From NCBI GenBank assembly GCA_965226055.1, contig CBDDCA010000006.1:258251-322250 (forward strand): a stretch of 64,000 bases of DNA, given 5' to 3'. Below the pieces are notes generated by a model. The model was not told where the DNA came from, made no database searches, and was given only the letters and a program-made list of their open reading frames with translations. The position numbers and the translations under genes are program-made. Origin of the DNA: Spirochaetia bacterium (GTDB lineage Bacteria; Spirochaetota; Spirochaetia; WTKD01; G963693115). The first letter of the stretch is position 1, and each line of letters begins with the position of its first letter. This document shows, piece by piece, positions 1 to 44,078 of the stretch.

Positions 1-1611
1 TGCACCAAGCCGTTCATTATCATTATTTATCGAAGCAAAAATATTATTCGCCTGTAGCTTTTGCCTATACTCTTCAGCAACATCTCTATACTGTTCTACA
101 ATAGGAATAATAACTACCTGTTCAGGAGCAAGCCATACAGGAAAAGCTCCCGAGTAATGCTCTATCAATACACCAAAAAATCGTTCCAAAGATCCCAGCA
201 ACGCACGATGAATCATATAAGGACGCTTTTTTTCTCCATCTTTATCAATAAAACTCATGTTAAATCGCTCAGGCAAATTAAAATCAAATTGAATAGTCGT
301 CATTTGCCATTCTCTTCCTAGCGCATCCTTAATTTTAAAATCTATTTTAGGACCATAGAAGGCCCCTCCTCCTTCGTCTATCTCATATTCAATATGTTCT
401 TCTTCTACTGCTTTCTTTAATGCGTCTGTAACCCTTTGCCAGTCATCATCCTTGCCTACCGCTTTTTTTGGTTTTGTTGCCAAAAAAGCCTTAATATCAG
501 AGAATCCTAAATCTTTCCAAATAGAATAAGAAAATCGTAACACTTCTTTTATCTCATTTTCTACTTGATCGGGAGTACAAAAGATATGAGCATCATCCTG
601 TGTAAAACCACGAACACGTAATAATCCATGCAATACTCCTCCTTTCTCATATCGATATACAGTACCAAGCTCTGCCCAACGTAATGGAAGCTCACGATAC
701 GATCGCATCTTATTTTGATATATCAGTATATGAAAAGGACAGTTCATAGGTTTCGCATAATAATCGCTTGCATCTAACTCCATAGGAGAATACATATTCT
801 CTTTGTAAAATTCAAGATGTCCACTTTTTTCCCATAACCAGCTTTTTCCTACATGTGGCGTAAACAGTATATCATAACCATTGTGAAGATGTCTTTCACG
901 CCAATAATCCTCCACAGTCACACGAATGCGAGCTCCTTTTGGATGCCAATAAATCAACCCTGCTCCTGCCTCTTCATGAATACTAAATAAATCAAGCTCT
1001 TTACCAATCTTCCTATGATCTCTTTTTTCTACTTCTTTTAACCACTCTAAATGCTGACGTAGCTCTTTTGGTTGAGTCCATGCAGTAGCGTATATCCTTT
1101 GTAACATAGGACGCTTTTCATCTCCACGCCAATACGCTCCTGCTACAGAAAGTAACTTACACGCCTTTGCATTCAAATACTTAGTACTAGGAACATGAGG
1201 CCCCTTACATACATCAACAAAATCGTATACTGTATAGGTACTCAACTCAGCATCATCATGAAACCCACTGATAAGCTCTTGCTTATATGGTTGCTGTTCA
1301 TACAACTTCATAATATCATCACGAGTATGTACCTGTTTTGTAAATACAGATTCTTCTTTTAGTATCTCACCCATAGTATCTTCTATCCGTACTAAATCAG
1401 CTTCAGTAAGCGAATGAGGGAGATCAAAATCATAGTAAAAGCCATTTTCTATGGGCGGACCAATAGCAGTCTTTGCCTCTGGAAACAGCTGTAGCACTGC
1501 TTTTGCCATAACATGAGCAAAACTATGGCGTATACGATACAATTGTTCTTCTATAGATAATTTTTTATATTCTGATTCATTTATGTTTTCTTCCATAGTA
1601 ACCTCTTCCAT
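1..1611 (-). CDS. thrS: Threonine--tRNA ligase, partial (C-terminus runs off window start); begins at the N2 editing domain so appears to lack the N-terminal TGS domain
   Basis: Minus-strand translation from ATG at 1611 (in-frame TGA immediately upstream) gives MEEVTMEENINE...RIRHSFAHVMAKAV...GPPIENGFYYDFD...RDHRKIGKELDLF...RPYMIHRALLGSLERFFGVLIEHYSGAFPVWLAPEQV, which carries canonical ThrRS motifs. Absent from the ORF track because no stop codon falls inside the window. Confidence 0.85.
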   Translation of the reverse strand, partial: MEEVTMEENINESEYKKLSIEEQLYRIRHSFAHVMAKAVLQLFPEAKTAIGPPIENGFYYDFDLPHSLTEADLVRIEDTMGEILKEESVFTKQVHTRDDIMKLYEQQPYKQELISGFHDDAELSTYTVYDFVDVCKGPHVPSTKYLNAKACKLLSVAGAYWRGDEKRPMLQRIYATAWTQPKELRQHLEWLKEVEKRDHRKIGKELDLFSIHEEAGAGLIYWHPKGARIRVTVEDYWRERHLHNGYDILFTPHVGKSWLWEKSGHLEFYKENMYSPMELDASDYYAKPMNCPFHILIYQNKMRSYRELPLRWAELGTVYRYEKGGVLHGLLRVRGFTQDDAHIFCTPDQVENEIKEVLRFSYSIWKDLGFSDIKAFLATKPKKAVGKDDDWQRVTDALKKAVEEEHIEYEIDEGGGAFYGPKIDFKIKDALGREWQMTTIQFDFNLPERFNMSFIDKDGEKKRPYMIHRALLGSLERFFGVLIEHYSGAFPVWLAPEQVVIIPIVEQYRDVAEEYRQKLQANNIFASINNDNERLGA

Positions 1612-1676
1612 TCAATATATATTTATTGTATAGTACTCTTTACAATATTACCATACCCTACTGTTCTATATTGGAA

Positions 1677-1768
1677 ATTATAGACTGATAGTAAATATGT
1701 ATAAAATGTTGTATAATTGAGTAAAGGAGGCTGGGCTAATCTAATTTTGCTTATCCTTGCCAACCCCT
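1677..1768 (+). mobile_element. Solo 3'-terminal remnant of an IS1595-family element
   Basis: About 90% identical to 4837-4930, which is the 3' end of the degraded IS1595-like transposase gene and its terminus (..taaaggaggcwgggytartctaattttgcttat..ttgccaacccc). The copy ends only ~22 bp before the ATG of the 1791 gene. Confidence 0.5.
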
Positions 1769-1790
1769 AAAATTATTAAAAGAGGTATAT

Positions 1791-4043
1791 ATGAAGTTAA
1801 ATATATTCTATTTATTTTTTATATTTCTTGTGTTTTCACTTTTTACTTGTGAAGATATAAAGGTTAATAGTAAGGAAAAAGCCACCGCACCAGCAGAGGC
1901 ACGCAGTGTTACAGCAAGCCACACCGATACAAGTATAACTATATCATGGCAAGCCCCTACCCTTACAAGCATACACACAAAAGCAAATGGAGAAAGGCTT
2001 ACAACGACAGATGTATCGTACAAAGTATACAGAGTAGCAAAAGGAAGTGATGCCCGAAGTATAGCCCAGATTAAAACAGCAGACACGAACCCGATAGCAG
2101 TAGCAAAAGGAACAACAAGCACAACTATAAGTAACCTTACTGAAAATACCACCTATGAAATAGTAGTACAATCAGTCAATGCAACAGATAGTACACAAGT
2201 CTCTACAGGCATGCGAATAGAAGTTACTACCCTTGCTACTAATCAAGCAACCGCACCAGCAGAGGCACGCAGTGTTACGGGAAGTCCTACCGATACCAGT
2301 ATAGGCATATCATGGCAAGCACCTGCCCTTACAAGCACACACAAAAAAGCAGATGGAGAAAGGCTCACAACAGCAGATGTATCGTACAAAGTATACAGAG
2401 TAGCAAAAGGAAGCAAAGCCCGCACAATAGCCCAGATTAAAACAGCAGACACAAACCCGATAGCAGTAGCAAAAGGAACAACAAGCACAACTATAAGTAA
2501 CCTTACTATAAATACTACCTATGAAATAGTAGTACAATCAGTCAATGCCACTGACCCAACAAAAATCTCTACAGGTACACTAATAGAAGTAACTACCAAT
2601 AGTCAAGCAACTGCACCAGCAGAGGCACGCAGTGTTACAGCAAACCACACCGATACCAGTACAACTATATCATGGCAACCCCCAATACTTACAAGCACAC
2701 ACAAAAAAGCAGATGGAGAAAGGCTCACAACGGCAGATGTATCGTATAAAGTATACAGAGTAGCAAAAGGAAAGAATGCCCGCACAATAGCCCAGATTAA
2801 AACAGCAGACACAAACCCAATAGCAGTTGCAAAAGGAATAACAAGCACAACTATAAGTAACCTTACTGGAAATACTCCCTATGAAATAGTAGTACAATCA
2901 GTCAATGCCACCGACCCAACAAAAACCTCTACAGGAGTACAAATAGAAATAACTACCAATAGTCAAGCAACTGCACCAGACGAGACACACAGTGTTACAG
3001 CAAGCCACACCGATACCAGTACAACTATATCATGGCAAGCCCCTACCCTTACAAGCAGTCACAAGAAAGCAGATGGAAGATGGCTCACAACAGCAGATGT
3101 ATCGTACAAAGTATACAGAGTAGCAAAAGGAAAGAATGCTCGCACAATAGCCCAAATTAAAACAGCAGACACGAACCCGATAGCAGTAGCAAAAGGAACA
3201 ACAAGCACAACTATAAGTAACCTTACTGGAAATACCACCTATGAAATAGTAGTACAATCAGTCAATGCTACCGACCCAACAAAAACCTCTACAGGAGTAC
3301 AAATAGAAATAACCACCCCAAGCCAAGCTACCATACCAGAAGAAATCCGCTTTTTAGGAAGAAGTCGAACCGATGACAGTATATCCCTATCATGGATATA
3401 TATTTATATTACTCCAGGCAAGAAAGCAACTGGACAAAAGCTTACAGCGGCAGATATATCGTATAAAATATATAGAGTAGCAAAAGGAAAGAATGCCCGC
3501 ACAGTAGCCCAGATTAAAACAGCAGACACAAACCCGATAACAGTAGCAAAAGGAATAACAAGCACAACTATAAGTAACCTTACTATAAATACTACCTATG
3601 AAATAGTAGTACAATCAGTCAATGAAACGGACACTACAAAAGTATCTACAGGAGTACGAATAGAAGCAAATACCGATAGTCAGGCAACCGCACCAGAAGA
3701 TACACAAAGTGTTGGAGTAGATACGACCACCGATGACAGTATAAGAATATCATGGGAAGCCCCTACCCTTACAAGCACACACAAAAAAGCAGATGGAGGA
3801 AGGCTCACAACAGCAGATGTATCATATAAAGTATACAGAGTAGCAAAAGGAAGGTATCCCCGCACAATAGCCCAGATTAAAACAGCAGACACGAACCCGA
3901 TAACAGTAGCAAAAGGAATAACCCACGCAACTATAAGTAACCTTAATGGAAATACTACCTATGAAATAGTAATACAATCAGTGAATGCAACGGACACTAC
4001 AAAAGTATCTACAGGAATACGATTAGAAGTAAATACCAAATAA
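1791..4043 (+). CDS. Surface lipoprotein with six tandem ~120-aa FN3-like modules
   Basis: N-terminal signal peptide with lipobox (LFTC). Each module reads ISWQAP..Y.VYRVAKG...TTYEIVVQSVNATD, an FN3-like W/Y/YxV pattern. Preceded by the RBS agagg. Confidence 0.8.
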   Translation: MKLNIFYLFFIFLVFSLFTCEDIKVNSKEKATAPAEARSVTASHTDTSITISWQAPTLTSIHTKANGERLTTTDVSYKVYRVAKGSDARSIAQIKTADTNPIAVAKGTTSTTISNLTENTTYEIVVQSVNATDSTQVSTGMRIEVTTLATNQATAPAEARSVTGSPTDTSIGISWQAPALTSTHKKADGERLTTADVSYKVYRVAKGSKARTIAQIKTADTNPIAVAKGTTSTTISNLTINTTYEIVVQSVNATDPTKISTGTLIEVTTNSQATAPAEARSVTANHTDTSTTISWQPPILTSTHKKADGERLTTADVSYKVYRVAKGKNARTIAQIKTADTNPIAVAKGITSTTISNLTGNTPYEIVVQSVNATDPTKTSTGVQIEITTNSQATAPDETHSVTASHTDTSTTISWQAPTLTSSHKKADGRWLTTADVSYKVYRVAKGKNARTIAQIKTADTNPIAVAKGTTSTTISNLTGNTTYEIVVQSVNATDPTKTSTGVQIEITTPSQATIPEEIRFLGRSRTDDSISLSWIYIYITPGKKATGQKLTAADISYKIYRVAKGKNARTVAQIKTADTNPITVAKGITSTTISNLTINTTYEIVVQSVNETDTTKVSTGVRIEANTDSQATAPEDTQSVGVDTTTDDSIRISWEAPTLTSTHKKADGGRLTTADVSYKVYRVAKGRYPRTIAQIKTADTNPITVAKGITHATISNLNGNTTYEIVIQSVNATDTTKVSTGIRLEVNTK
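1887..4043 (+). repeat. 6 x 360-bp in-frame tandem repeat (coding)
   Basis: Repeat units start at about 1887, 2246, 2606, 2966, 3326 and 3686 and are near-identical at the DNA level. They generate the periodic antisense ORF artefacts seen in the ORF track. Confidence 0.85.
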
Positions 4044-4226
4044 GTAGGAATAATGAAAATACTAATAAGTAATTGCATAAAGGTAAAATATTCTAAACGA
4101 TATACAGAAAGAACACATCCCAAGAACCATATACCGAGAGTAATATAGTGCGACATTTCACCAGTAAAATATTGAAAGAGGTAGAGTATCAAGTAACCGA
4201 ATACTTAAAAAGTATAGGAGTAAAAA

Positions 4227-4862
4227 ATGATAGAGAAAAAAGACAGTTTTAGAGATGGAATGAAAAAAGCAGATAAAAGCGAAGACACTAAAGTTATAGA
4301 ACAGATATTAAATGAAGTAGGTAACTATTTAGTACAATTCGTTATGTGAAGTAAGTTGAGAAACAGCAACAAAATGGTATCATATATTTCGAGTAATGAT
4401 AGCAAAAAAACTCACAGTATATGAAGTATTGATAAAAAGAGAAATAGATGAAAGTTATTTCGGAGGAAAAAGAAAAGGAAAACGAGGAAGAGGAGCAACA
4501 GAAAAAACAATAGTGCTTAGATTGTATAAAAGGAGTGACCATGTGCATACACTCACAATAAGTAATACAACGACTTGCAACTCTATAGTATCATACAGAA
4601 AAAATAGCTCCTCAGAGTAGTATCTATACAGACACCTCTCCGAGTGATAATATACTTGCTGTATCAGACTTTCAGCACTATCGCATAAATCATGCAAAGG
4701 AATTTGCACACAAGCAAAATCATATAAACGAGATAGAGAATTTTTGGAATCCAATCAAAGAGACATCTGAGAAGATACAATGGAATACAAAAAAACCATT
4801 TTGAATTATACTTAAAAGAATATGAATTTCGGTTTAATTATAGACCGATAGCAAACATGTAT
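4227..4862 (+). pseudogene. IS1595-family (ISXO2-like) transposase, N-terminally truncated and frameshifted
   Basis: Fragments read EIDESYFGGKRKGKRGRGATEKTIV and later ..ENFWNPIKETSEKIQWN..LKEYEFRFNYR in a different frame. These match the conserved IS1595 DDE transposase core and its C-terminal FRYNRR motif. Stops and frame changes interrupt the reading frame. Confidence 0.6.
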
Positions 4863-5033
4863 ATATGTGTTGTAAAATTGGATAAAGGAGGCAGGGTTAG
4901 TCTAATTTTGCTTATATCCATGCCAACCCCATATTATATTTTCGCCTATACAGTTATAATTTTTAGCATTTCTGCTTATCTCTTAAAAGAGAAAAGCAGA
5001 AACATGTGTATATGCATTAACAATGCATGAGAA

Positions 5034-5993
5034 TTACTGTAATGGGTATAGTAGCTTTTGCACTTCGGGAGTATCGATATTTTCAAGGCTTACATACGTA
5101 GCACCTGTATCGATTCTTGGATTTACGCTTTTTCCTTGTAGAGCATCGTATACTGACATAACGCCTTTATATCCCATTTGAAATGGATTTTGTACAACAA
5201 AGCCATTAATAACTCCACTTTGAAGCAAAGCTATTTCTTGCTCACTAGAATCAAATCCAACAAGAATAATATCCTCTCTTCCAATTTCCTGCAATCCTAA
5301 TGCCGCTCCTACCGCAGAACCTTCGTTTGCTGCAAAAATAGCTTTAAGATCTGGATTAGCTCGTACCATATCAACGATAAGATTAGCAGATTTATCATGA
5401 TCTCCTGCACCGTACACTGGCTCAAGAACAGTTATACCAGAATACTTTTTTAATTCCTGTAAAGCTCCATCTCTTCTGTCTATCCCTGTAGAACTAGTTG
5501 CATCATGAACAATAACGCCTACTTTTCCTTCTTCACCAATAAGAGTAGCAAGCTCTTTTGCTCCTATCGCTGCAGCATTTGCATTATCAGTAGCAACAAA
5601 ACTCAATGGAATGTCACTATCTACTCCAGAATCAAACATAACTACTGGAATACCTGCTGTATTTGCTTTTTCCACATACGGAATAAGAGCTTCCTTATCT
5701 AAAGCAGCAAGCAACAGACCATCAACTCTTGATGTAATAGCATTTTCTACCATATTGATTTGTACATCAATCATTGATTCGGTAGCAGGCCCCTCAAAAG
5801 TAACTCTAATGCCAAGTTCTTCTGCCGCAGTATCAGCTCCCAGCTTTACTGTTTGCCAAAATTCATGCTGAAACCCTTTACTGATAACAGCAATATATGT
5901 GTCATCATCAGACACAGACTCTTGATTTCCACCAGCAAAAAGCATACCAGTGAACACCAACAATAAAATAGTTGAAATAATGATTTTTTTCAT
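5034..5993 (-). CDS. Sugar ABC transporter periplasmic substrate-binding protein (ribose/galactose-type PBP)
   Basis: Signal peptide, then a type I periplasmic binding fold (VISKGFQHEFWQ..., GIPVVMFDSG). Last gene of the ATPase-permease-SBP operon. Confidence 0.85.
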   Translation of the reverse strand: MKKIIISTILLLVFTGMLFAGGNQESVSDDDTYIAVISKGFQHEFWQTVKLGADTAAEELGIRVTFEGPATESMIDVQINMVENAITSRVDGLLLAALDKEALIPYVEKANTAGIPVVMFDSGVDSDIPLSFVATDNANAAAIGAKELATLIGEEGKVGVIVHDATSSTGIDRRDGALQELKKYSGITVLEPVYGAGDHDKSANLIVDMVRANPDLKAIFAANEGSAVGAALGLQEIGREDIILVGFDSSEQEIALLQSGVINGFVVQNPFQMGYKGVMSVYDALQGKSVNPRIDTGATYVSLENIDTPEVQKLLYPLQ

Positions 5994-6014
5994 TATAACC
6001 TCCTTATATTATTT

Positions 6015-6998
6015 TTATTTATTGTTCATCCCTCGTTTTATACGCTGATTATCAAGATAGACCGCTAGTATTACTACTAAGCCTATAATAATCTGCTGCC
6101 AAAATTGATTCACCTGCATAAGATTAAGCCCATTCCGTAACACACTCATAATCAAAGCTCCTATGACTGTCCCTAGTATAGTCCCTACTCCTCCCGATAA
6201 ACTTGCTCCTCCTATTACTGCAGCAGCAATTGCATCAAGCTCTAATCCTGTAGCAATAGATGGTTGCCCCGAATTCAAACGTGCAGCCATAATGATCCCT
6301 GCAAATCCACACATAGCTCCTGAGAAAGTATATACAAAAAACTTCACTAATTTTACAGAAATTCCCGAAAGCCTCGCTGCTTCTTCGTTGCTTCCAAGTG
6401 CGAAAATATATCTTCCTACTACCGTTTTTGATAATAGTAAATGAGCTATCACTGCAAACACAGCAAGATAAATAACAGGCATAGGTAATATACCGTACAT
6501 ATCATAATTATATAACAGCTTAAAATTCTGTTGTTGATTAAAATATATTGGTCTGCCACCACTCAACACTAAAGCAAACCCTCTCGCACTTATCATAACC
6601 CCAAGGGTAGCAATAAAAGGAGGCAATTCTAAATGTGCCACTACTACACCGCTAAAAGCACCACATAGTATACCAGATATAACTCCAATGACAAGTGCTG
6701 GAGCTATAGCCATGCCAGATCTTAAAAGAAGAGCTACAATGACCCCCGAAACAGCGACAATAGAACCAACAGAAAGATCAATACCTGCAGTAATAATAAC
6801 TATAGTAATACCAATAGCCACAATACCAGTTACTGCAGTTTGTTTAATTACTGTTATGATATTATCATATTTTAAGAAATAAGGACTTGCAAAAGAGAAA
6901 AATATTACAAGTAACAATAAACTTGCAAATATAGCTAATTTTTGAATAGTACTAGAATTTATCATCGATTTTTTACAGACAATTTCTTTTTGTGACAT
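6015..6998 (-). CDS. Sugar ABC transporter permease (RbsC/MglC-like)
   Basis: Polytopic membrane protein with the BPD_transp_2 pattern. Lies in an operon between the ATPase and SBP genes. Confidence 0.85.
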   Translation of the reverse strand: MSQKEIVCKKSMINSSTIQKLAIFASLLLLVIFFSFASPYFLKYDNIITVIKQTAVTGIVAIGITIVIITAGIDLSVGSIVAVSGVIVALLLRSGMAIAPALVIGVISGILCGAFSGVVVAHLELPPFIATLGVMISARGFALVLSGGRPIYFNQQQNFKLLYNYDMYGILPMPVIYLAVFAVIAHLLLSKTVVGRYIFALGSNEEAARLSGISVKLVKFFVYTFSGAMCGFAGIIMAARLNSGQPSIATGLELDAIAAAVIGGASLSGGVGTILGTVIGALIMSVLRNGLNLMQVNQFWQQIIIGLVVILAVYLDNQRIKRGMNNK

Positions 6999-7026: not shown

Positions 7027-8547
7027 CTAATTTTCATGTTGCATATGACCAGTAGCATATAACATAATTTTTTCCTGTGTAATATCTTGTTTTTCTAATA
7101 TACCTGATACTTCTCCCGAACACATTACCAATACTCTATCACTCATCCCAACAATTTCACTTAAATCTGAAGATACCATTATGATAGAAAGCCCAGTATC
7201 AGTTAAAGAAGTAATAAGATCGTATATTTCACGTCTTGCTCCAACATCAATACCTCTTGTAGGCTCATCAAAAATCAAAACATCGCATTGCGTACACAAC
7301 CACCGAGCAATAATCACTTTTTGCTGATTTCCTCCACTTAAATAGCGTACAATCTGAGTTAAAGAAGGAGTTTTTATACGTAAAGAATCTACAAATTCTG
7401 TACAATGCTCTCTTGCAATATTTTTGTTAATGATCCCTATCTTTTTAGAATGTTCCTTTATGGTAGCAAGGATTATGTTTTCTTGTACATTGAGATTAAG
7501 AGCAAGTCCATTTTTTTTCCTATCTTCAGTCAGATATCCAATACCATGCCTTATTGCATCACGCGGAGTATTGATAGCAACTTCTTTAGAATGAACAAAT
7601 ACTTTACCACTATCCTTCGGATCTGCACCAAAGATAGCTCTCATTAACTCAGTACGACCAGCTCCCACTAAACCAGACACTCCTAGTATTTCTCCCTTAC
7701 ACAAAGAGAACGATATATTCTTTAAGTCAGGATTACGCTGTATATTTTCTACACGCAAAATTTCCTCTCCTCTATGAGGATGCCTCGTAGGAAACATATC
7801 AGTAAGCTCTCTTCCTACCATAAGATGTATAAGATGTTCAGTAGTAGTATCCGCATAGTGCAAAGTATCAATATACTGACCATCTCGAAATACAGTTACT
7901 CTGTCCGCAATTTCTTCCAGCTCCTTCAATTTATGAGAGATAAAAATAATTCCTTTTCCTTGCTCTTTTAGTCTACGTACTGTACTAAACAATACTTCTG
8001 TTTCTGCTTCACTTAATGTTGCTGTTGGCTCATCCATAATGAGAATATCACAAGACACTGAGATAGCTTTAGCAATCTCTACCATTTGCTGTTCTGCAAC
8101 ACTTAAAGTACTTACTTTTGCATATACATCAATACTATAATTAAGTAACTGCAATATTCTATTTGCTTCTTCATTTAATTTTTTCTCATTAAGCACATAC
8201 CGAGCATAGCGTGGTTCTCTCCCAATAAATATATTTTGTGCAACAGTAAGATGGGAGAAAAGATTGAATTCTTGATGAATAATACTAATACCAATTTCCT
8301 GTGCTACATGAGGATTAAGCACTTCAATTTTCTTACCACGATATATAATATCTCCTTTATCTGGTTGATATACTCCAGTAAGAATTTTCATAAGAGTAGA
8401 TTTGCCTGCCCCATTTTCACCTAAAATAGCATGTACTTCCCCTGCCTTTACATCTAAAGACACATTTTGCAACGCCTTTACTCCAGGAAAAAATTTAGAT
8501 ACATCTTGTACCTTCAACAGCATATCGCTTTTATTTTGTGCCATCAT
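7027..8547 (-). CDS. Sugar ABC transporter ATP-binding protein with duplicated ATPase (RbsA/MglA-like)
   Basis: Two nucleotide-binding domains: Walker A motifs GENGAGKST and GLVGAGRT, LSGG signatures and Walker B motifs. Confidence 0.9.
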   Translation of the reverse strand: MMAQNKSDMLLKVQDVSKFFPGVKALQNVSLDVKAGEVHAILGENGAGKSTLMKILTGVYQPDKGDIIYRGKKIEVLNPHVAQEIGISIIHQEFNLFSHLTVAQNIFIGREPRYARYVLNEKKLNEEANRILQLLNYSIDVYAKVSTLSVAEQQMVEIAKAISVSCDILIMDEPTATLSEAETEVLFSTVRRLKEQGKGIIFISHKLKELEEIADRVTVFRDGQYIDTLHYADTTTEHLIHLMVGRELTDMFPTRHPHRGEEILRVENIQRNPDLKNISFSLCKGEILGVSGLVGAGRTELMRAIFGADPKDSGKVFVHSKEVAINTPRDAIRHGIGYLTEDRKKNGLALNLNVQENIILATIKEHSKKIGIINKNIAREHCTEFVDSLRIKTPSLTQIVRYLSGGNQQKVIIARWLCTQCDVLIFDEPTRGIDVGARREIYDLITSLTDTGLSIIMVSSDLSEIVGMSDRVLVMCSGEVSGILEKQDITQEKIMLYATGHMQHEN

Positions 8548-8649: not shown

Positions 8650-9642
8650 CTATTTACTTGTGTATTTTATAGAAACCCATATCCGAAACGAACTACTTTT
8701 TCCGTTATATTTACCACTTCCTTGAAAGCTAATTGTATACAATTTCTGTAATAGCTTCCCTTTTGCTTTACCACTTATTGTACCAGAGCTAGTATCAAAA
8801 CCTAATCCTGTCTCATCGTTAATATCAGGAGAAATAGCATAGCGACCAGATATATCACTGGGATTTGCATCAAAACTCACCGATATATCAGTATCTTTGT
8901 CAGCAATAGCCATAATGAACGGTAAGCCATTATACGGTTCTATGGTAACAGCATCATTCCCGCTTGGAGTAAATACATAGCTCCAGCCAGGAAGTTTTAC
9001 ACTCGTAACACCTGAATTATCAAATATACCTTCTACTCTAATAGTATCTTGTATATCCCATTCCTCTAAATCATGCTTAAACCCAGTGGCTCCCTTAAAC
9101 ATATTAATCATATTATTGATAGTATTGTTTACTTTCCACGTTGATATATCTTGATTAAACTGTGTCGCTCCTGCAAACATACTGTTCATATTTTTCACTT
9201 TCTCTACTTTCCACACTGATATGTCTTGATCAAACTGTGTTGCTCCTGCAAACATACCACTCATATCGGTAACATTACTGACATTCCAGCTTGATATATC
9301 TCCATTAAAATGAGTATTTCCCTTAAACATATTGCTCATATCGGTAACATTACTGACATTCCAGCTCGATATATCTCCATTAAAATTAGCTAAATCTCCA
9401 TCACTACTAAATAAACCACTCAAATCTGTCATATTACTTATATCTATATTTGAGAGATCTGTTTCCCATCCATGAAATGAAACTTCACGTTTTATATTAT
9501 TAGCTAGTACTTGTTTATCCGATGGATGATAGACAAAAGACAAGTCTGTAGATTCCTGACTACAACTAAAAAGCAGTAGCAATCCCATTCCTATCATCCA
9601 TAGAAAATAATACTTATATGCTTGAGCATTACATTGTCTCAT
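8650..9642 (-). CDS. DUF285-repeat lipoprotein, single-module paralog of the 2822-aa protein
   Basis: Lipobox LLFSC. Tandem ~25-aa DISxWNVSNVTDMSxMF repeats (PF03382-like), then a C-terminal GLGFDTSSGTISG Ig-like segment. The N- and C-termini align with the first module of ORF 10605-19073. Confidence 0.75.
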   Translation of the reverse strand: MRQCNAQAYKYYFLWMIGMGLLLLFSCSQESTDLSFVYHPSDKQVLANNIKREVSFHGWETDLSNIDISNMTDLSGLFSSDGDLANFNGDISSWNVSNVTDMSNMFKGNTHFNGDISSWNVSNVTDMSGMFAGATQFDQDISVWKVEKVKNMNSMFAGATQFNQDISTWKVNNTINNMINMFKGATGFKHDLEEWDIQDTIRVEGIFDNSGVTSVKLPGWSYVFTPSGNDAVTIEPYNGLPFIMAIADKDTDISVSFDANPSDISGRYAISPDINDETGLGFDTSSGTISGKAKGKLLQKLYTISFQGSGKYNGKSSSFRIWVSIKYTSK

Positions 9643-9786
9643 AACTATTACACCAAATATACATTGATTACTACAGCTTGTACTTTAACTATAATTATTT
9701 TTACTAAATCTTACAGAGTAAAAAAACAATATGCTATTATTATACACTATATTAAAAAAATATGCAAAAATAGGTAATAAGTTGCC

Positions 9787-9826
9787 ACGAGTTCAAGTAT
9801 TAAATGTGACAAAGGAGCAAAAAAAG
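9787..9826 (+). repeat. Solo copy of the IS30-element left inverted repeat
   Basis: Reads ccacgagttcaagtattaaatgtgacaaaggagcaaaaaaag, matching the IRL of the IS30-family element at 54786. Confidence 0.5.
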
Positions 9827-9930
9827 CGAAAATATAAAAAATACTGAATGTATCTCTTGCCTTTATTTCTTGAATTTGTAGCAGCTATCTTTTCTGTATA
9901 ACTGTGAGTAAGGTATTTTATAAGTGGCAA

Positions 9931-10536
9931 TTATATTCTACTGAATAAGATACTGAACAAAATACCAAATCCTGACAACATGATAGTCATTTGAATTCCA
10001 AAAAACCAGTACATAATAGTACTGTTTGTTTTTATCGATTCTTTCATAGATTTTATTTCTGTTGTCAAATTTTCCCGTACACTATTTATTTCTGTTGTCA
10101 AATTTTCCCGTACACTGCTTATCTCTGTTGTTAAGTTCTCCCGTATGCTGTTTATTTCTGTTGTTAAGTTCTCCCGTACACTGTTTATTTCTGTTGTTAA
10201 TTTCTTCTCTACACTGTTTATTTCTGTTGTCAAATTTTCCCGTACACTGCTTATCTCTGTTGTCAAATTCTCTCGTACGCTGTTTATTTCTGTTGTCAAA
10301 TTTTCCCGTACACTATTTATTTCTATTGTCAAATTTTCCCGTACACTGCTTATCTCTGCTGTTAAGTTCTCCCGTACACTGCTTATCTCTGCTGTTAAGT
10401 TCTCCCGTACGCTGTTTATTTCTGTTGTTAATTTCTTCTCTACACTGTTTATTTTTTCTAATAAAAAATCATATTGTGTAATTGGAGTTGCAAGCATTCC
10501 ATCTTCATTTGTAATTTTCTCTTGTACTGCTCTCAT
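9931..10536 (-). CDS. Tail-anchored coiled-coil protein with ~13 tandem 11-residue (hendecad) repeats
   Basis: Repeats of (T/A)EI(N/S)SVRENLT have hydrophobic residues at positions 1, 4 and 8 of each 11-mer. Single C-terminal TM segment (IMYWFFGIQMTIMLSGFGILFSILF). Confidence 0.55.
   Translation of the reverse strand: MRAVQEKITNEDGMLATPITQYDFLLEKINSVEKKLTTEINSVRENLTAEISSVRENLTAEISSVRENLTIEINSVRENLTTEINSVRENLTTEISSVRENLTTEINSVEKKLTTEINSVRENLTTEINSIRENLTTEISSVRENLTTEINSVRENLTTEIKSMKESIKTNSTIMYWFFGIQMTIMLSGFGILFSILFSRI
10047..10447. repeat. About 12 x 33-bp tandem repeat (VNTR) inside CDS 9931-10536
   Basis: Contiguous 33-bp units with a few substitutions each (ttatttctgttgtcaaattttcccgtacactat). 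No spacers, so it is not a CRISPR array. Confidence 0.85.
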
Positions 10537-10604
10537 AATTTTATTATATCATATTATTATCATTGAGTAAGTATGTAATCATTTGTAAGGTTGCAAATAA
10601 ACAA

Positions 10605-13600
10605 CTAGCGACAATTCCCCGCTGGAAGACACCATCCAGGCAAGTTTTTTACAGCTGTACCCTTAAACATATCTGTTTTTATCACACTGTTTGCTACATT
10701 CCAGTTACTCAAATTCTGATTAAAAACACTAGCATCAGCAAACATACTGCTCATATCGGTAACATTACTTACATTCCAATTCCCTATATCTTGATTAAAA
10801 ACATCAGCATCATAAAACATATACCTCATATTGGCAACATTACTTACATTCCAATTCCCTATATCCTGATTAAAAGCTTCAGCATCATAAAACATACTGT
10901 TCATATTGGTAACTTTACCTACATTCCATTTTGATATATCTCCATTGAAAAATTCTGTTTGATTAAACATATTGCTCATATCGGTAACTTTACTTACATT
11001 CCATAACGATACATCTCCATTAAAGTATTGTTTATCATAAAATAGCCCTCCCATGTCTGTTATGTTACTTGTATCTATCATGTTTAAGTTAGGGGCAAAT
11101 CCTTGTGCTTTTATCTCTGCTTCTATGGCTTCCTCTAACTTTTTTTTGTTTTGAGGAGTGTACTTGTATTCTATCGTAACTGATATTGTTTTTGATCTAC
11201 TGGCATCAGTATATGTATGTATTGCTTTCCCATCGCTCTTTTTACTGGTAAACTCTATAGTATAGGTCTTTGAAGCTGCTTTGGTAGGAGTACCTGATAT
11301 CTTCCCAGTATCAGCATCAAAGCTCAACCCTGTATCTGCTGTTATATCCGGACTTATACTAAAAATTCCTGCTATAGCGGGTGTTTTAGTAAGTGTTACT
11401 TCTTTATCTTTCGTTAATGGTACTCCTACATATGCCTTTACACTACCTCCTATACTAGCTCTACTTGCACTTATATTAAAATACCATGTAGGGAGTATTA
11501 CTACAGCTGTATGCTCAAACATATTTGTTTTACTCACAGTTTTATCCACATTCCATGTTTCAAGTTCTTTATTAAATACACTTGCTCCCTTAAACATATT
11601 GCTCATATCGGTAACTTTACTGACATTCCACCCTGTTATATCTTGATTAAACTTACTTGCATTAATAAACATACTACGCATATCGGTAACTTTACTGACA
11701 TTCCACCCTGTTATATCTTGATTAAACTCACTTGCCTTAAAAAACATACTGCTCATATTGGTAACGCTACTGACATTCCATCTTGATATATTTCCATTAA
11801 AATTAACTTCACTGGAAAATAGACTACTCATATCTTTTATTTTACTTGTATCTATCATAGTGAGATCGGGGGTATTTCCTTGTACAGTTATCTCTGTATT
11901 TATAGCCTGCTGTAATTCTGCTTTATTATTAGGAATATGCTTATACTCTTTAATAGTAACTAACACTTTTATAGTCCGCCTATCATCAATATATTTATGT
12001 ATGAGTGTTTTATCAGCCTCTTCACTTCTAAACTGTATGGTATACTCAGTCTGTGAAGTTACTGTGGTGGGAGTACCTGATATTATGCCAGTACTAGTAT
12101 CAAAGTTCAACCCTGTATTTGTTGTTATATTTGGACTTATACTAAAACTCCCTGTTATAACGGGCGTTTTGGTAAGTATTATTTTTTGACTGTCTAGGAG
12201 TGATAAATCTCTATAGACACTTATAGTAGTACTATTTGCACTTATACTAAAATACCATGTAGGCAACTTTTTTACTGCTGAAGCAAGAAACATATCTGTT
12301 TTTGTCACACCGCTATCTACATTCCAACTTTCAAGATCTTGGTTAAATGCATTTGCGTTATTAAACATAAAAAACATATTCGTAACACTACTGACATTCC
12401 AATTTGATATATCCCCATTAAATTTTTGTGCTCCTGCAAATATACTGCTCATATTGGTAACTTTACTTACATCCCATTTCGATACATTTCCATTAAAATG
12501 ATCTTTACTGGAAAATATATTACTCATATCTGTTATAGCACTCGTATCTATTATGTTTAGATTAGCGGTATTTCCTTGTGCATTTATCTCATCATCTACA
12601 GCCTTCTGTAATTCTGTTTTATCACTGGGCGTATACTTATACTGACTTATAGTTACATGTATCTCTATTGTCCGATCAGTATATGTATGTATTGTTTTCC
12701 CATTCTTTTCACTGGTAAACTGTATAGTATACTTAGTTTGTGAAGCTAATATAGTGGGAGTACCCGATATTGAGCCAGTGTTAGTATCAAAGTTCAACCC
12801 TGTATTTGTTGTTATATTTGGACTTATACTAAAACTCCCTGTTACATTAGACGTTTTAGTGAGTGTTATTGTTTCAGTGTTACTTAGCGATAAATCTTTG
12901 TATCCAGTTATAGTAGTTCTGTTTGCATTTATACTAAAATACCATGTAGGCAACTTCTTTACTACTGTACTTTCAAACATATTTGTTTTTATTACACTGC
13001 TTTTTACATTCCAGTTTTCCAGATTTGCACTAAACTTTGATGCAAAATTGAACATAGTTTCCATATTTGTAACTTTACTTACAGTCCAATTTTTTATATC
13101 TTGGTTAAAGCTTTGTGCAGATAGAAACATAGCTCTCATATTTATAACTTTACTTACAGTCCAATTTTTTATATCTTGGTTAAAGGCATGTGCTCCAGCA
13201 AATAAACTCTCCATATTTGTAACAGCACTTACATTCCATCCTGATATATCTCCATTAAATTTATTCGCATTCAAAAACATATTGCTCATATTTGTAACTT
13301 TACTTACATTCCATTTTGATATATCTCCATTGAAATTAGCTTTATCCTCAAATAGATTACTCATATCTGTTATAACACTTGTGTCTATTATGTTGAGATT
13401 AGCAGTATCTCCTTGTGCAGCTATCTCATCATCTACAGCTTTCTGTAACTCTGTTTTATTACTAGGAGTATGCTTATAACTTGTGGTAACTGATATTTTT
13501 ATTGTTCTATCAGTATATTTATGTGTCGCTGGATTACCTTTACTATCAGTAAAGCTACTGGTAAACTCTATAGTATAATCAGTCTTTGAAGCTGCTTTAG

Positions 13601-16600
13601 TAGGAGTTCCTGATATTGTGCCAGTGCTAGTATTAAAATCTAACCCTGTATTTACTGTTATATCTGGACTTATACTAAAACTTCCTGTTATATCAGGCGT
13701 TTTGGTAAAAGTTATTTCTTTATTTTTTGCAAGTGGAACATTTACATATGTATTTATACTACGATTACTTGCACTTATATTAAAATACCATGTAGGCAAC
13801 TTTGCTACTGCGGTATTCTTAAACATATCTGTTTTTGTCACACCACTTGCTACATTCCAGCTTTCAAGATCTTTTTCAAATGCATTTGCTCCACTGAGCA
13901 TACTACTCATATTGGTGACAGCATTTACATCCCATTCGGATATATCTCCATTGAAAGTAATATTATCCTTAAATAGATCACTCATATCTGTTATTTTACT
14001 TGTATCTATTATGTTGAGATTAGCTTCGTTTCCTTGTACATTTATCTCTGTAGTTATAGCTTGCTTTAATTCTGTTTTATTATTAGGAGTATGCTTATAC
14101 CTACGTATCTCTACCGATATTTTTATTGTCCTATCAGTATCAATATATTTATGTATTACTGTTCCATCTGTCTTTTTACTTGTAAACTGTATGGTATATT
14201 CAGTCTTTGAGATTGCTGTAAGAGGAGTACCCGATATTTTACCAGTGCTAGGATCAAAATCTAAACCTGTATTTTTTGCTATATCTGGACTAACGCTAAA
14301 ACTTCCTGTTATATTAGGTGTTTTGGTAAGGGTTATTTCTTTATCTGTTGCTAATGGTATGTTTTTATATGCAATTATCTTATTATCACTTGCACTTATG
14401 CTAAAATACCATGTAGGCAACTTTGCTACTGCGGTATTCTTAAATATATCTGTTTTTGTCACAGTCCCATCGCTTGCTACATTCCAATCTTCCAGATCTT
14501 GGTTAAATTTTGTCGCTCCCAAGAACATCTTGCCTATATCGGTAACGCTACTTATATTCCAGCTTGATATATCTTGATTAAACGCTGCCGCTGACGAAAA
14601 CATCTGATGCATATTCGTAACTTTTCCTACCTTCCAATTTGATATATCTTTATTAAAAATGGTTGCTCCCGAAAACATAGCTGTCATATTTGTAACTTTT
14701 CTTACATCCCAGCCCGACATATTGCTATTAAAATTTGCTGCTCCTAAAAACATTCGATTCATATCCGTAACTGCCCCTACATTCCACCCCGATATATCTT
14801 TATTGAAACTGGTTGCTCCCGAAAACATATTCCCCATATCATTCACATTTTGTACCTTCCAATTTGATATATCTTGATTAAAACTTGTCGCATTCCAAAA
14901 CATACCATTCATGTTAGTAACACTTTGTACCTTCCAGTTTGATATATCTTGATTAAAACTACCTGCATAATAAAACATACTGCTCATATCAATAACATTA
15001 CTTACATTCCAACCAGAAATATCCCCATTAAATGCAGCAGCTTGATTAAACATATGACTCATATCAGTAACATTACTTACATCCCACTCAGATATTTTAC
15101 CATTAAAAGTAGTATTACTATTAAATAATCCACTCATATCATCAATCTTACTAGTATCAATTATATTTAAGTCAGCAGTATTTCCTTGTAATCCTATCTC
15201 AGTATTTATATTGTTTATTAATTCTAATTTACCAGTAGGAGTATACTTATGCCCTATAGTAACTGTTATCGTTATTGTCCTATCAGTATAGGCATATATT
15301 GTTTTCCCATTCTTTTCACTGGTAAACTGTATGGTGTAAGGAGTTTTTGAAGCTACCTTTGTAGGAGTACCCGATATTGTCCCAGAGCTAGAATCAAAAC
15401 TCAAGCCTGTATTTGTTGTGATACTTGGACTTATACTAAAACTTCCTGCTATACTAGGTGTTTTGGTAACTTTTATTTCTTCACTTGCTCCTAATTTTAT
15501 ACGTGCTTGCCCTGTCAGAGCAGACTTATTTGCACTTATACTAAAATACCATGTAGGTAACTTTGCTACTGCGGTATTCTTAAACATATCTGTTTTTGTC
15601 ACAGTCCCATCGCTTGCCACCTTCCAGCTTTCAAGATCTTTGTCAAATGCACTTGCTCCTAAAAACATGCTACTCATATCAGCAACCTTGCTTACATTCC
15701 ATCCCGATACATTTTGATTGAAACTTGTTGCTCCTGAAAACATATTACTCATATCGGTAACGCTACTTACATCCCATCCCGATATATCTCCATTGAAATT
15801 AGCTTTATTCTCAAATATATTACTCATATCTGTTATATTACTTGTATTTATTATGTTTAAGTTAGCAGTATTTCCTTGTACTTCTATCTCCTTTTTTATG
15901 TTTTCCAATAACTCTGTTTTGTTGTTAGGAGTATAAAGATAAGTATTTATTGCTACTGATAGAGTGATGGATCTAGTATCGACATAAGTATATGTCGCTG
16001 GATTACCTGAGCTATCAGTAAAGCTACTGGTAAACTGTATGGTGTAAGAAGTTTGTGAAGCTGCCTCGGTAGGAGTACCCGATATTGTGCCAGTTCTAGT
16101 ATCAAAATCTAACCCTGTATTTGCTTTGATATCTGGACTTATACTGAAACTTCCTGCTATAAGGGGTGTCCTTGTCAGTATTATATCTGTTATTGGTACT
16201 TTTACTCCCTCATGTATACTATTGCTGCTTGCGCTTATACTAAAATACCATGTAGGTAATTTTGCTACTGCAGTATTCGTAAACATATTTGTTTTTGTCT
16301 TAAGGCTTGCTATATTCCAGTTTTCAATATCTCCATTAAATTTTATCGCCCCACTCAACATATTTTCCATATCAGTGACTTTACTTACATTCCACTCGGA
16401 TATATTTCCATTGAAAGTAGTGTTATCCTTAAATAGATCACTCATATCTGTTATGTTACTTGTATCTATTATGTTGAGATTAGCAGTATTTCCTTGTGCA
16501 TTTATCTCTGTAGTTATAGCTTGCTTTAATTCTGCTATATTATTGGGAGTATGCTTATATTTATGTATCTCTACTGATATTGTTATTGTTCTATCAGTAT

Positions 16601-26797: not shown

Positions 26798-26865
26798 AAA
26801 TTACTCCTTTAATTATTATTAGTATATCATATATGTACATATTATATTTTTATAACAAGAAAATA

Positions 26866-27265
26866 TCACGAGTTCAAGGATTAAATGCGACAAAGGAGCA
26901 AGAAACATAAAACAAGCATATTTTTTATTAGCTACTACATATAGTGTATATTTAGTATATAATTTTCAATTTAAGCACTAGAGAAATTTGCTTTATTTTT
27001 ATATTAATGCTATACTAAATGCAGAATAATAAGAGAACAATAACATTATGAGTGTACAAGCAAAAACTGATACAAAAGAAACTACTTTAATTTTAAATAA
27101 TACCGATAAGGAAAATTTGGAAAGATGTTTCTCGGAATGGAAATTCAAAGATTATCAAAGCCTTATGAGGTTCGTATCATCTATTTTAATTGAGAGCGAA
27201 GATAAAATAACAATAGGCATTAAGAAAAGTGGAGTGCTAAAAGAATTTTCACCAGCAGATCATTT
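26866..27265 (+). repeat. IS30-IRL-led ~400-bp module, copy A (carries a small ORF)
   Basis: About 97% identical to 54283-54700. Starts with the IS30 left-IR sequence atcacgagttcaaggattaaatgcgacaaaggagc. No right IR is present. Confidence 0.7.
26988..27016 (+). promoter_or_regulatory. Putative sigma70-type promoter (TTGCTT-N17-TATACT) for the small ORF inside the repeat module
   Basis: -35 at 26988-26993 and -10 at 27011-27016. The same motif sits at 54414-54442 in copy B. No experimental support. Confidence 0.3.
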
Positions 27266-27281
27266 ACTAAAAGATTCATAA
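27048..27281 (+). CDS. Small hypothetical protein (77 aa) encoded inside the repeated module; paralog of 54474-54731
   Basis: Identical over ~70 residues to the copy B ORF but with a different C-terminus. RBS-like purine-rich run upstream. Confidence 0.5.
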   Translation: MSVQAKTDTKETTLILNNTDKENLERCFSEWKFKDYQSLMRFVSSILIESEDKITIGIKKSGVLKEFSPADHLLKDS

Positions 27282-27626
27282 ATGGCAGATAATCAAAACA
27301 ATAAACCTAATGCTGAGTATAGCATTGAACATCAATTAAAGGAGTTAAAGCAAGATATAATTACCCCTCATAAATTTGCAAAGATATTTTCTGATGCTAT
27401 GCGTGAATCAAAAGGTTTAGATGAAAGTATACAAAAATGCTTAAAAGAGCTTATAGCTAAAGATGATGATATTAAAAAGGAAATTTTTGAGAGAATAAAA
27501 GATTACATCAAAGAAGAAAGAAAGTTATTTAATACATCAGTATGGAAAACATCTAAAGACATTATTCTTTTAATTGTAGGTGCTGGAATATCGTTTTTAT
27601 TTACATGGCTAGCAAAGTTTCTTTAA
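27282..27626 (+). CDS. Hypothetical small protein with a C-terminal transmembrane segment
   Basis: Its ATG overlaps the stop of 27048-27281. Charged helical N-terminal part, then LLIVGAGISFLFTWLAKFL. Confidence 0.4.
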   Translation: MADNQNNKPNAEYSIEHQLKELKQDIITPHKFAKIFSDAMRESKGLDESIQKCLKELIAKDDDIKKEIFERIKDYIKEERKLFNTSVWKTSKDIILLIVGAGISFLFTWLAKFL

Positions 27627-44039: not shown

Positions 44040-44078
44040 ATAACGATCACGAGTTCAAGGAGTAACTGCGACAAAGGA
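44040..44078 (+). repeat. Solo IS30-type left-IR copy at the junction of the tandem gene duplication
   Basis: Reads cacgagttcaaggagtaactgcgacaaaggagcaaaaaac. Confidence 0.5.

Follow-up and report, generated by a model that had tools for sequence, protein, structure and literature searches.

An FN3-repeat lipoprotein gene lies between thrS and the gene for a ribose-type ABC substrate-binding protein (SBP) in a 64-kb stretch of spirochaetal DNA, the whole of which is referred to here as the window. It is flanked by two remnants of an IS, placed by BLAST against an intact IS from a close relative, the Spirochaetia MAG OZ244590.1, whose thrS has 97.5% nucleotide identity to that of the window. 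The features of the locus are as follows.

1-1596, minus strand: thrS, the 5' 532 codons, running off the start of the window; 99% amino acid identity to the 590-aa ThrS of OZ244590.1
1597-1670, no strand: conserved non-IS DNA, the thrS leader and divergent intergenic region; the same in the relative save for a 1-bp indel
1676-1767, plus strand: upstream solo right-end remnant, matching IS positions 636-727 of the reference at 89% identity
1677-1705, minus strand: promoter-like TTTATA-17-TATAAT directed toward thrS, 10/12 consensus matches
1689-1717, plus strand: promoter-like TAGTAA-17-TATAAT directed toward the FN3 gene, -10 at 1712-1717, 9/12 consensus matches
1751-1767: terminal inverted repeat (IR) of the upstream remnant, IR-like GGGGTTGGCAAGGATAA on the minus strand with 2 mismatches
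1768-1790, plus strand: 23-bp spacer with the RBS AGAGG at 1781-1785, 5 nt before the ATG at 1791; identical in the relative
1791-4043, plus strand: FN3-repeat lipoprotein gene, a 750-aa ORF with a signal peptide and Cys20
1879-4039, plus strand: tandem repeats 360 nt long, each coding for one FN3 domain (TRF: period 360, 6.0 copies, 84% matches)
4044-4337, no strand: non-IS DNA 3' of the FN3 gene, reaching to the truncated IS; alignment to IS 1-135 not significant (z = 0.3)
4338-4930, plus strand: downstream 5'-truncated, decayed IS copy, matching IS positions 131-727 at 88% identity
4914-4930: terminal IR of the downstream copy
5034-5993, minus strand: SBP gene, convergent with the FN3 gene (Peripla_BP_4, E = 2.2e-60)

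The initial annotation had recognised the repeats flanking the FN3 gene, the RBS and a TATAAT in the IS-derived sequence. These are present, and the repeats are both on the plus strand, but several details needed correction. The upstream segment had been placed at 1677-1768 and the TATAAT at 1722-1727, each somewhat downstream of its position above; the gap between remnant and ATG is 23 bp and not 22 bp; and identity between the two copies, given as about 90%, is 83% with gaps counted (79 of 95 aligned columns).

The lipoprotein contains six fn3 stretches (E = 6.7e-28). Its ortholog in the relative (locus L006) has 9.0 repeat copies and 1111 aa, and the ORF is intact in both genomes. The family comprises 21 proteins out of 5.8 billion, all encoded on six contigs of this lineage; it is native and multi-copy there, and import of the gene is not required. 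Window positions 4053-4226, in the 3' flank, are 76-80% similar to positions 9816-10029 of locus L009, near a paralogue, and about 122 bp of this flank (roughly 4154-4275) are missing from the relative. IS1016-like flanks were not found around the paralogues examined, save for one fresh insertion inside the L004 paralogue. The 590-aa ThrS has the domains tRNA_SAD, tRNA-synt_2b and HGTP_anticodon. A search of the whole window against Rfam returned no known RNA.

The IS1016-subgroup element and its remnants

The source element is present in OZ244590.1 as three identical live copies of 727 bp, each encoding a transposase of 219 aa and ending in a perfect 17-bp terminal IR, GGGGCTGGCATGGATAA, which starts GGGGCTGG. 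AT-rich 8-bp target site duplications (TSDs) surround all three (TAATTTAA, AAATTTTA and AAAAATAA). These copies define the true ends of the element, which the initial annotation had proposed to seek in intact copies, and they identify the 92-bp upstream segment as an IS right end, as it had claimed. Elements of the IS1016 subgroup are about 700-745 bp long, with short terminal IRs that begin GGGgctg (ISfinder). The OZ244590.1 copies have the size, the ends and the 7-9-bp AT-rich TSDs of this subgroup. The intact transposase scores 166 bits against NF033547 (cutoff 75) and 115 bits against PF12762 (cutoff 27). Its signature, E-IDESYFG(53)IYTD-TYPS-Y(24)HINGIENFWNQSK(15)LYLKECEFRFN, fits the published catalytic pattern of the subgroup, E-DESYFG(53)VYTD----Y(24)HINGIENFWSQAK(14)LFIKECEFRFN (PMC12561309). 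By sequence, both window remnants are thus assigned to an element of the IS1016 subgroup (IS1595 family) with a predicted DDE transposase of the IS1595/ISXO2 type.

The best annotated match of the transposase is ISEc69/ISEc75, at about 58% amino acid identity (57.9% for ISEc69). On the source contig the other known copy of the element is a 121-aa fragment, and a metagenome scan with the IS right end gave 0 matches. This IS1016-subgroup element of an uncultured Spirochaetia lineage is previously undescribed. OZ244590.1 carries at least three live copies and one miniature derivative of 183 bp (locus L003). Insertions are found in AT-rich 8-mers of non-coding DNA and, once, in the AT-rich signal-peptide codons of an FN3 paralogue (L004). 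In the relative, 44 bp separate the end of one live copy from an amtB/P-II-like operon downstream of it, which has the same orientation.

In the window, a 33-nt core is present at two places and no others, 1722-1754 and 4883-4915, each time on the plus strand; 100 shuffles gave 0 matches. The upstream 92 bp consist of the last ~23 transposase codons, the stop codon and the 17-bp terminal IR. Both right ends differ from the IR of the live element at 2 of 17 positions, and their right flanks are unrelated to each other. Missing from the downstream copy is everything before IS position 131, the left end included. Relative to the reference it shows 59 substitutions in 589 aligned positions, deletions of 6 bp (one) and 1 bp (two), and insertions of 1 bp (two) and 2 bp (one). 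Its coding sequence carries frameshifts and an in-frame TGA, the latter near its 5' end at about 4356-4358 (read from the printed sequence). Its transposase fragment scores 21.9 bits against PF12762, which is below the cutoff, but the 88% DNA identity to an intact element that passes both profiles establishes what it is. After gap correction the pseudogene keeps DESYFG, IYTD and HINEIENFWNQSK...EFRFN. The earlier description of a degraded IS1595-type transposase therefore stands.

No IRL-like sequence with 3 or fewer mismatches occurs in the 64-kb window, and two sequences with 4 mismatches do not represent ends of the IS. The element's sole transposase ORF in the window is truncated and disrupted; there are no functional outer ends and no functional transposase. 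As no left end remains, the IS-FN3-IS unit is immobile.

Could more of the element survive in diverged form? Window 4151-4337 and an extra 137 bp upstream of the relative's remnant were considered as strongly diverged IS 5' parts, on peptide resemblances such as WYHKLR to WYHMFR; neither alignment was significant against shuffles (z = 0.3-1.6). No more than 3 nt separate the start of the upstream remnant from the deletion junction seen in the L003 miniature, and descent from an element of that kind was considered. The relative's upstream remnant is longer, however, which shows the boundary in the window to be a later, lineage-specific truncation.

Origin of the arrangement

Locus L006 of OZ244590.1 has the layout of the window (SBP, remnant, FN3, remnant, thrS). 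Since it is common to both genomes, whose neutral divergence is about 7%, this layout predates their split. Other relatives are arranged differently. In L007, whose ThrS is 86% identical, the thrS leader DNA is largely kept up to about window position 1655, but RbsD adjoins thrS, there is no IS at the locus and the 92 bp are missing; the segment is thus not host-gene sequence. A host gene containing it in an IS-free relative would have told against an IS origin, and the opposite was seen. In L005 the SBP gene is followed by genes for a 545-aa protein and RbsD, and more distant relatives have other genes at the FN3 position. The remnants coincide with the synteny breakpoints, at the exact edges of the segment that sets this lineage apart from its distant relatives. 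They explain the break next to thrS, and there is good support for the initial proposal of a rearrangement of the locus by IS activity.

How, then, did the FN3 gene come to lie between two dead IS copies? We lean, if only slightly, towards the explanation that the same-direction pair of IS1016-subgroup copies, or deletions adjacent to them, placed the gene here, and that an IS end now supplies its transcription or the path for read-through. A directly oriented pair, as a compound or pseudo-compound transposon, may have captured or moved the gene; alternatively, adjacent deletions mediated by IS ends may have left it between thrS and the ABC operon. The IS copies would afterwards have decayed while continuing to exchange sequence by gene conversion. 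Directly oriented IS pairs are the typical mobilising arrangement of the subgroup (PMC12561309, PMC7835479, PMC6535587), and two copies of the same IS around a passenger, as in a compound transposon, are what the window contains (1676-1767 and 4338-4930). Movement of the FN3 gene as a cassette, which the initial annotation suggested, is no more than possible. Among family members, the paralogues examined and the metagenome scan, the IS-FN3-IS unit turned up at no other site. The left boundaries of the window remnants are deleted and no TSD is readable; with neither a TSD nor an outer left end surviving, insertion as one unit and two separate insertions are not distinguishable.

A credible alternative, to which we would give rather less than an even chance, is that two copies inserted independently beside a resident FN3 gene, fell in the same orientation by chance and each decayed, with no cassette moved. 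The target preference of the element, extending even to the signal-peptide codons of a paralogue, favours this reading, as do the frequency of insertion in the relative, the unrelated right flanks of the two window copies and the native status of the FN3 family. However, the shared orientation must then be fortuitous, an even chance in itself, both copies must happen to coincide precisely with the borders of the lineage-specific segment, and insertions alone leave the loss of the RbsD-type neighbours unexplained.

The two remnants in the relative share one internal deletion junction and are identical over their last 98 bp; across 209 columns they differ at 10, all within the first 111. The common junction and identical tail point to gene conversion or duplication between the remnants. 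As the window's downstream copy does not have this deletion, later gene conversion is the better explanation of the junction. A tandem duplication of an ancestral FN3-IS segment, followed by deletion of the first FN3 gene and most of the first IS to leave a solo right end, is very unlikely: the junction and tail in the relative and the recombination-prone FN3 arrays (6 vs 9 copies) would suit it, but in both genomes the homology of the upstream to the downstream copy goes precisely as far as the IS terminus, as transposition predicts and an arbitrary duplication endpoint would not, the undeleted downstream copy of the window fits later gene conversion better, and the relative's extra 137 bp match nothing near the downstream copy. 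The locus illustrates how dead IS copies may live on as short direct repeats between which sequence is still exchanged.

Upstream of IS position 636, the relative keeps about 245 bp after the thrS leader that are gone in the window. Despite this loss the FN3 ORF, its RBS and its first 99 nt are unchanged. The upstream remnant shows 12% divergence between window and relative, more than the roughly 7% of neutral sites, while its flanks are nearly identical; this indicates no purifying selection on the remnant as a whole, a comparison confounded by gene conversion in the relative.

Transcription of the FN3 gene

In three paralogues a conserved element abuts the RBS. The thrS-linked FN3 gene has the IS end in its place, and homology with the paralogues begins only at the RBS. 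The IS right end would thus have taken the place of the upstream element that the paralogues keep. With the native element displaced, transcription of the FN3 gene from or through the remnant is plausible, most likely from the outward TAGTAA-17-TATAAT in the former 3' end of the transposase gene or by read-through across the remnant. The -10 hexamer is ancestral to the IS, being present in the reference IS, the miniature and both of the relative's remnants.

The initial annotation held that transcription must start inside the IS. A -10 does lie there, and the paralogue element has been lost to the IS end, but "must" is too strong. The -35 TAGTAA matches at 3/6 positions and the pair falls below the threshold of the promoter-scan tool; in the AT-rich DNA of the window there are 110 TATAAT hexamers, of which 77 have an equally good match; 74 bp of conserved non-IS DNA (1597-1670) lie upstream; and read-through would meet neither a terminator nor a stable structure in the remnant or in 1722-1800. 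A hybrid promoter, with -35 TTTGCT at 1746 and -10 TAAAAT at 1768 (8/12), was rejected, as its start would fall inside the RBS. The opposite-strand TTTATA-17-TATAAT is probably not the thrS promoter, since in the relative it is ~170 bp further from thrS. The repeated motif CACGAGTTCAAGGATTAAATGCGACAAAGGAGC was considered as a native promoter motif of lipoprotein genes and is in fact the left IR of an IS30-family element. That element lies at 54784-~55866, with four solo copies.

The remnant may instead be neutral for expression, with the FN3 promoter in the thrS-proximal 74 bp and read-through into the gene, or with the gene silent; we regard this as tenable, if on the doubtful side. Those 74 bp are almost perfectly conserved while the remnant has diverged by 12%, they contain CTTCCA-18-TATAGT at 1605/1629 (TTTCCA-18-TATAGT in the relative), and 1722-1800 has no terminator or stable structure. 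Yet the block is more simply taken as leader and promoter of thrS, an essential gene, and in the relative at least some 360 bp separate it from the ATG of the FN3 gene. The loss of ~245 bp in the window with the gene unaltered favours a promoter within the retained 92 bp, and the ORF intact in both genomes also speaks against this reading.

A stronger claim would be that the right end is a portable promoter retained by the host, serving the FN3 gene here and the amtB operon in the relative, and that the flanking repeats are a working recombination substrate. We think this unlikely. If true, the whole surface-protein unit could undergo gene conversion, be excised or be amplified, a spirochaetal counterpart of the IS1016-driven copy-number variation of the cap locus.

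In sum, the locus is an old and unexceptional transposon scar at the site of a genome rearrangement, from which the FN3 gene may now take its promoter. The direct value of the analysis is in annotation, as the ends, the target duplication, the 183-bp miniature and the live copies of the element are now defined. The locus indicates that an IS end can replace the native upstream region of a gene, and that the lineage-restricted family of FN3/DUF285 surface proteins is being reshaped by IS insertions, by the scars they leave and by gain or loss of repeats. The IS is new and its arrangement known, and current understanding is not challenged.

Comparison with known systems

IS-borne outward promoters can activate adjacent genes, a general phenomenon. 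The present locus resembles such cases in having an IS end 23 bp from a start codon, a perfect -10 facing outward and a native element that appears to have been displaced. We know of no outward promoter described for IS1016-subgroup elements; if confirmed, the one proposed here would document promoter donation for the subgroup. Promoters are not mentioned in PMC12561309 or PMC7835479.

ISApl4 of Actinobacillus pleuropneumoniae, which forms the pseudo-compound transposon Tn7560, is an IS1016-subgroup element of 712 bp (727 bp here) with a transposase of 217 aa (219 aa here). It shares the catalytic signature, the 8-bp AT-rich duplications, mostly non-coding insertion and a same-orientation pair around a passenger (PMC12561309). 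This likeness rests on the published description, the closest amino acid comparison being with ISEc69/ISEc75. Unlike the two dead copies here, which have no left end, the copies of Tn7560 are intact, identical and shown to be active, and its passenger is a set of resistance genes rather than a surface lipoprotein gene of an uncultured spirochaete (PMC12561309). In ISEc69-mcr-2-ORF-ISEc69 (Tn7052) the passenger likewise lies between directly oriented IS1016-like copies; that structure is plasmid-borne, intact and experimentally mobilisable, whereas the one in the window is chromosomal and decayed (PMC7835479).

The cap locus of Haemophilus influenzae differs in that the FN3 unit as a whole was not seen to vary in copy number here, only its internal repeats (6 vs 9), and the direct repeats left are short, 92 bp in the window and about 209 bp in the relative. 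The two are alike in that a locus for a surface structure lies between IS1016 copies, one of them truncated (the IS1016-bexA partial deletion), and the recombination between copies that drives duplication and deletion at the cap locus has its parallel in the exchange between the relative's remnants (PMC6535587).

An IS1016-subgroup element and its remnants

Between thrS, the threonyl-tRNA synthetase gene (-), and the gene for a ribose-type ABC substrate-binding protein (SBP) lies an FN3-repeat lipoprotein gene flanked by degraded insertion sequence (IS) segments.

1676-1767, +: upstream remnant, IS positions 636-727 (last transposase codons, stop codon, right inverted repeat)
1791-4043: FN3 lipoprotein gene, 750 aa, signal peptide ending at Cys20, six fn3 stretches
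4338-4930, +: downstream remnant, IS positions 131-727

The repeated IS end on both sides of the gene, proposed in the initial annotation, is borne out: the 64-kb window contains exactly two instances of a 33-nt core, TAAAGGAGGCWGGGYTARTCTAATTTTGCTTAT (1722-1754 and 4883-4915, both + strand), and shuffles of the window sequence contain none. A repeat-family search of the window also recovered the pair, as family D20. The two copies can be aligned across about 92 bp, and 79/95 aligned columns match, not the ~90% first reported. The assignment to an IS1595-type element holds, with several positions revised. The upstream segment, first placed at 1677-1768, maps to 1676-1767 against the IS reference, and the spacer between the IS terminus (1767) and the ATG (1791) is 23 bp instead of 22, with its AGAGG ribosome binding site (RBS) at 1781-1785. 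The TATAAT within the IS-derived segment is at 1712-1717, not 1722-1727.

When one genome per species was scanned, the shared end sequence was matched in a single record, OZ244590.1, a 2.36-Mb Spirochaetia MAG chromosome with four matches. Three are identical elements of 727 bp, the source of the IS reference, with terminal inverted repeats perfect over 17 bp (GGGGCTGGCATGGATAA), 8-bp target duplications (TAATTTAA, AAATTTTA, AAAAATAA) and an intact 219-aa ORF (IS positions 45-704). The protein scores 166 bits against NCBIfam NF033547 (IS1595 family transposase) and 115 bits against Pfam PF12762. It bears the catalytic signature of the IS1016 subgroup, E-DESYFG(53)IYTD----Y(24)HINGIENFWNQSK(15)LYLKECEFRFN, a pattern published in PMC12561309. 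The nearest annotated relatives are ISEc69 and ISEc75 (~58% aa identity), plus multi-copy Neisseria IS1016-like elements. This is a new member of the IS1016 subgroup, in Spirochaetia, and its definition is part of what the present analysis adds. The fourth match is internally deleted.

L003 (OZ244590.1) 7785-7967: miniature IS derivative, 183 bp

It consists of the left ~80 bp fused to the right ~95 bp and keeps both inverted repeats whole. It lies downstream of a 232-aa ORF, and its flanks show no clear target duplication.

The IS is prolific in the lineage, and its targets are AT-rich 8-mers. One live copy in OZ244590.1 (L004 6935-7661, opposite orientation) interrupts a paralogous FN3 lipoprotein gene within its signal-peptide codons and is flanked by the target duplication TTATTTTT; removal of the IS and one duplication copy restores MKYISILYLFFIFLVLSLLSCEDLK…. 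Another intact copy (L001, oriented 556-1282) has its right end 44 bp upstream of ORF 1327-2568, which encodes a 413-aa ammonium-transporter (amtB)-like protein and is followed by a 113-aa P-II-like gene, both in the orientation of the IS and with functions inferred from N-terminal sequences only. The gene on the other side of this IS is divergent, and the operon may depend on transcription out of the element.

The downstream remnant differs from the IS reference by 59 substitutions in 589 positions, one 6-bp and two 1-bp deletions, and two 1-bp and one 2-bp insertions, with an in-frame TGA close to its 5' end. No left inverted repeat of the IS is present anywhere in the 64-kb window, and the sole other copy known on the 957-kb contig of the source genome is a C-terminal fragment of 121 aa. 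The window structure is therefore immobile.

The locus in related genomes

OZ244590.1 comes from a very close relative of the window's source: the two thrS genes share 97.5% DNA identity and differ by 6 amino acids, with 7% divergence at 4-fold sites. In OZ244590.1 the orthologous locus (L006) repeats the window's arrangement, running from the ABC operon and SBP gene through an IS remnant, the FN3 gene and a second IS remnant to thrS, and the bracketed layout is therefore older than the split of the two genomes. The upstream remnant there is longer: it combines IS about 268-300 with 537-727 and has 137 bp of DNA before it; the window lacks about 245 bp kept in OZ244590.1 around this remnant. 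The downstream remnant has an internal deletion in OZ244590.1 that is absent from the window copy. Both OZ244590.1 remnants carry the identical deletion junction, …GGAAAAACA joined to TTGGAATCAATC…, and in their 209 common columns the differences (10/10) all fall in the first 111, leaving the last 98 bp identical (for this clustering, (111/209)^10 ~ 0.002, a rough, post-hoc figure). Together, the shared junction and identical tail indicate that the flanking copies exchanged sequence, by gene conversion or duplication, once decay had begun.

In a more distant relative (86% ThrS identity), an RbsD gene is immediately upstream of thrS, and no IS, FN3 gene or ABC operon is present at that locus. 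In another relative (77% SBP identity), a 545-aa protein and then RbsD come after the SBP gene, and the window position matching its E1-dehydrogenase neighbour is about 34 kb distant. Since both lack the whole arrangement, the IS remnants coincide with the borders of a lineage-specific segment, a synteny breakpoint. The initial annotation correctly recognized an IS scar; to this are added evidence of its ancient age and of exchange between its copies, and its position at the breakpoint.

The fn3 stretches are encoded by an array of a 360-nt unit (6.0 copies, window 1879-4039). Only 21 related proteins, spread over six contigs, were found at E ≤ 1e-20 in a 5.8-billion-sequence database; OZ244590.1 alone carries 13 or more members of the family, and many of these are fusions with DUF285 repeats. 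These are surface proteins restricted to one lineage. The OZ244590.1 array has 9.0 copies (L006 6231-9474; 1111-aa protein) compared with 6.0 in the window, and the window repeats pair best with its last six, at ~88% identity versus 94-97% for the flanking genes; the array evolves fast or in concert. The 3' flank of the gene (window 4053-4226) is 76-80% similar to L009 9816-10029, downstream of a DUF285 gene adjoining a paralogous FN3 gene in OZ244590.1, which suggests a paralogous locus as the source of gene and flank. The orthologous locus of OZ244590.1 lacks about 122 bp of the window (roughly 4154-4275).

Elsewhere the window contains further DUF285 genes and homopolymers.

8650-19073, -: DUF285 (BspA-like) repeat lipoprotein gene cluster
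43082-43094: C13 homopolymer, near a minus-strand gene start
44210-44223: C14 homopolymer, near a minus-strand gene start
56138-56152: G15 homopolymer, just upstream of or inside the 5' end of ORF 56191-60906 (1571-aa FN3/DUF285 protein)

Many repeat families are nested within a 2822-aa ORF of the cluster (10605-19073), and a tandem array of a 33-nt unit occupies about 9954-10514 in ORF 9931-10536. The C13 and C14 tracts are inside a 300-nt repeat pair (43066-43365 and 44195-44494, 95% identical). The homopolymers could serve slipped-strand phase variation or be artefacts of long-read assembly.

Transcription of the FN3 gene

What drives the FN3 gene? Co-transcription from the upstream gene is impossible because thrS is divergent. 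The initial claim that transcription must start inside the IS sequence is reduced to about even odds. An element abutting the RBS, ATTCAAG…TTTGAACTTGTGA-GGAG, is conserved in three FN3 paralogues of OZ244590.1.

L008 ~5960-6000: paralogue upstream element
L009 ~5960-6000: paralogue upstream element
L004 ~6850-6885: paralogue upstream element (reconstructed)

The window gene lacks this element; the IS end occupies its place, and paralogue homology begins at the RBS. Upstream of the ATG, sequence common to the window and OZ244590.1 is confined to the thrS leader, the terminal 92 bp of the IS and the spacer; the window has lost about 245 bp of the DNA in between, and its FN3 gene is unaffected. 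The retained 92 bp contain TAGTAA-17-TATAAT, with a −10 ancestral to the IS. The divergence of thrS, the displaced paralogue element, the retained 92 bp, the ancestral −10 and the live L001 copy beside the amtB/P-II-like operon all count for a promoter within the IS. The −35 is poor, equally weak ones accompany 77/110 TATAAT hexamers in the window, and the site goes unreported by a promoter scan. Alternatively, a promoter in the 74-bp thrS leader could give a transcript reading through the remnant: window 1722-1800 has no stable fold (z = +1.5) and no predicted terminator. Hardly any difference separates the window from OZ244590.1 in that leader, in the 23-bp spacer or over the first 99 nt of the FN3 gene; in the upstream remnant only 81/92 positions match, and as a whole it has no sign of constraint in this comparison.

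The paralogue element resembles the outer end of an IS30-like left inverted repeat (IR). Such elements may be scars of old IS30-type insertions, supplying promoters, or else a regulatory palindrome mimicked or targeted by the IS. IS30-type sequences are also present in the window.

54784-55866, +: IS30-family element, 321-aa transposase ORF 54892-55857
9786-9818, +: solo IS30 left IR
26867-26899, +: solo IS30 left IR
44048-44080, +: solo IS30 left IR
54284-54316, +: solo IS30 left IR

In the full element the left IR reads CACGAGTTCAAGGATTAAATGCGACAAAGGAGC; the right IR, near 55832-55864, has diverged. Each solo IR faces a minus-strand gene start from 56-143 bp upstream. Window segments 54282-54770 and 26865-27349 share 91% identity, and the sequence looks like a non-autonomous IS30 derivative.

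Origin of the bracketed structure

The most economical reading is that the structure would be the fossil of a directly oriented IS pair, or the product of adjacent deletions mediated by an IS end. Two independent insertions flanking the FN3 gene are a serious rival, given an IS that is abundant in the lineage, aims at AT-rich 8-mers and has interrupted even the signal-peptide codons of the paralogue at L004. Both window remnants have lost their left ends, and with them the target duplication that would choose between a pair and independent insertions. An IS-FN3-IS unit in a second context was not found among FN3 family members, paralogues or the metagenome scan for the IS end. Tandem duplication is unlikely because the homology of the upstream and downstream copies ends precisely at the IS terminus.

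For a fossil pair, known systems offer a likeness. Directly oriented IS1016-subgroup copies bracket moved genes in Tn7560, with its ISApl4 pair (PMC12561309), and in ISEc69-mcr-2 (PMC7835479). At the Haemophilus influenzae cap locus, truncation of one of the IS1016 copies is common, and duplication there has been ascribed to the flanking pair (PMC6535587). The direct orientation of the window remnants is the characteristic mode in which elements of this subgroup bracket and move genes.
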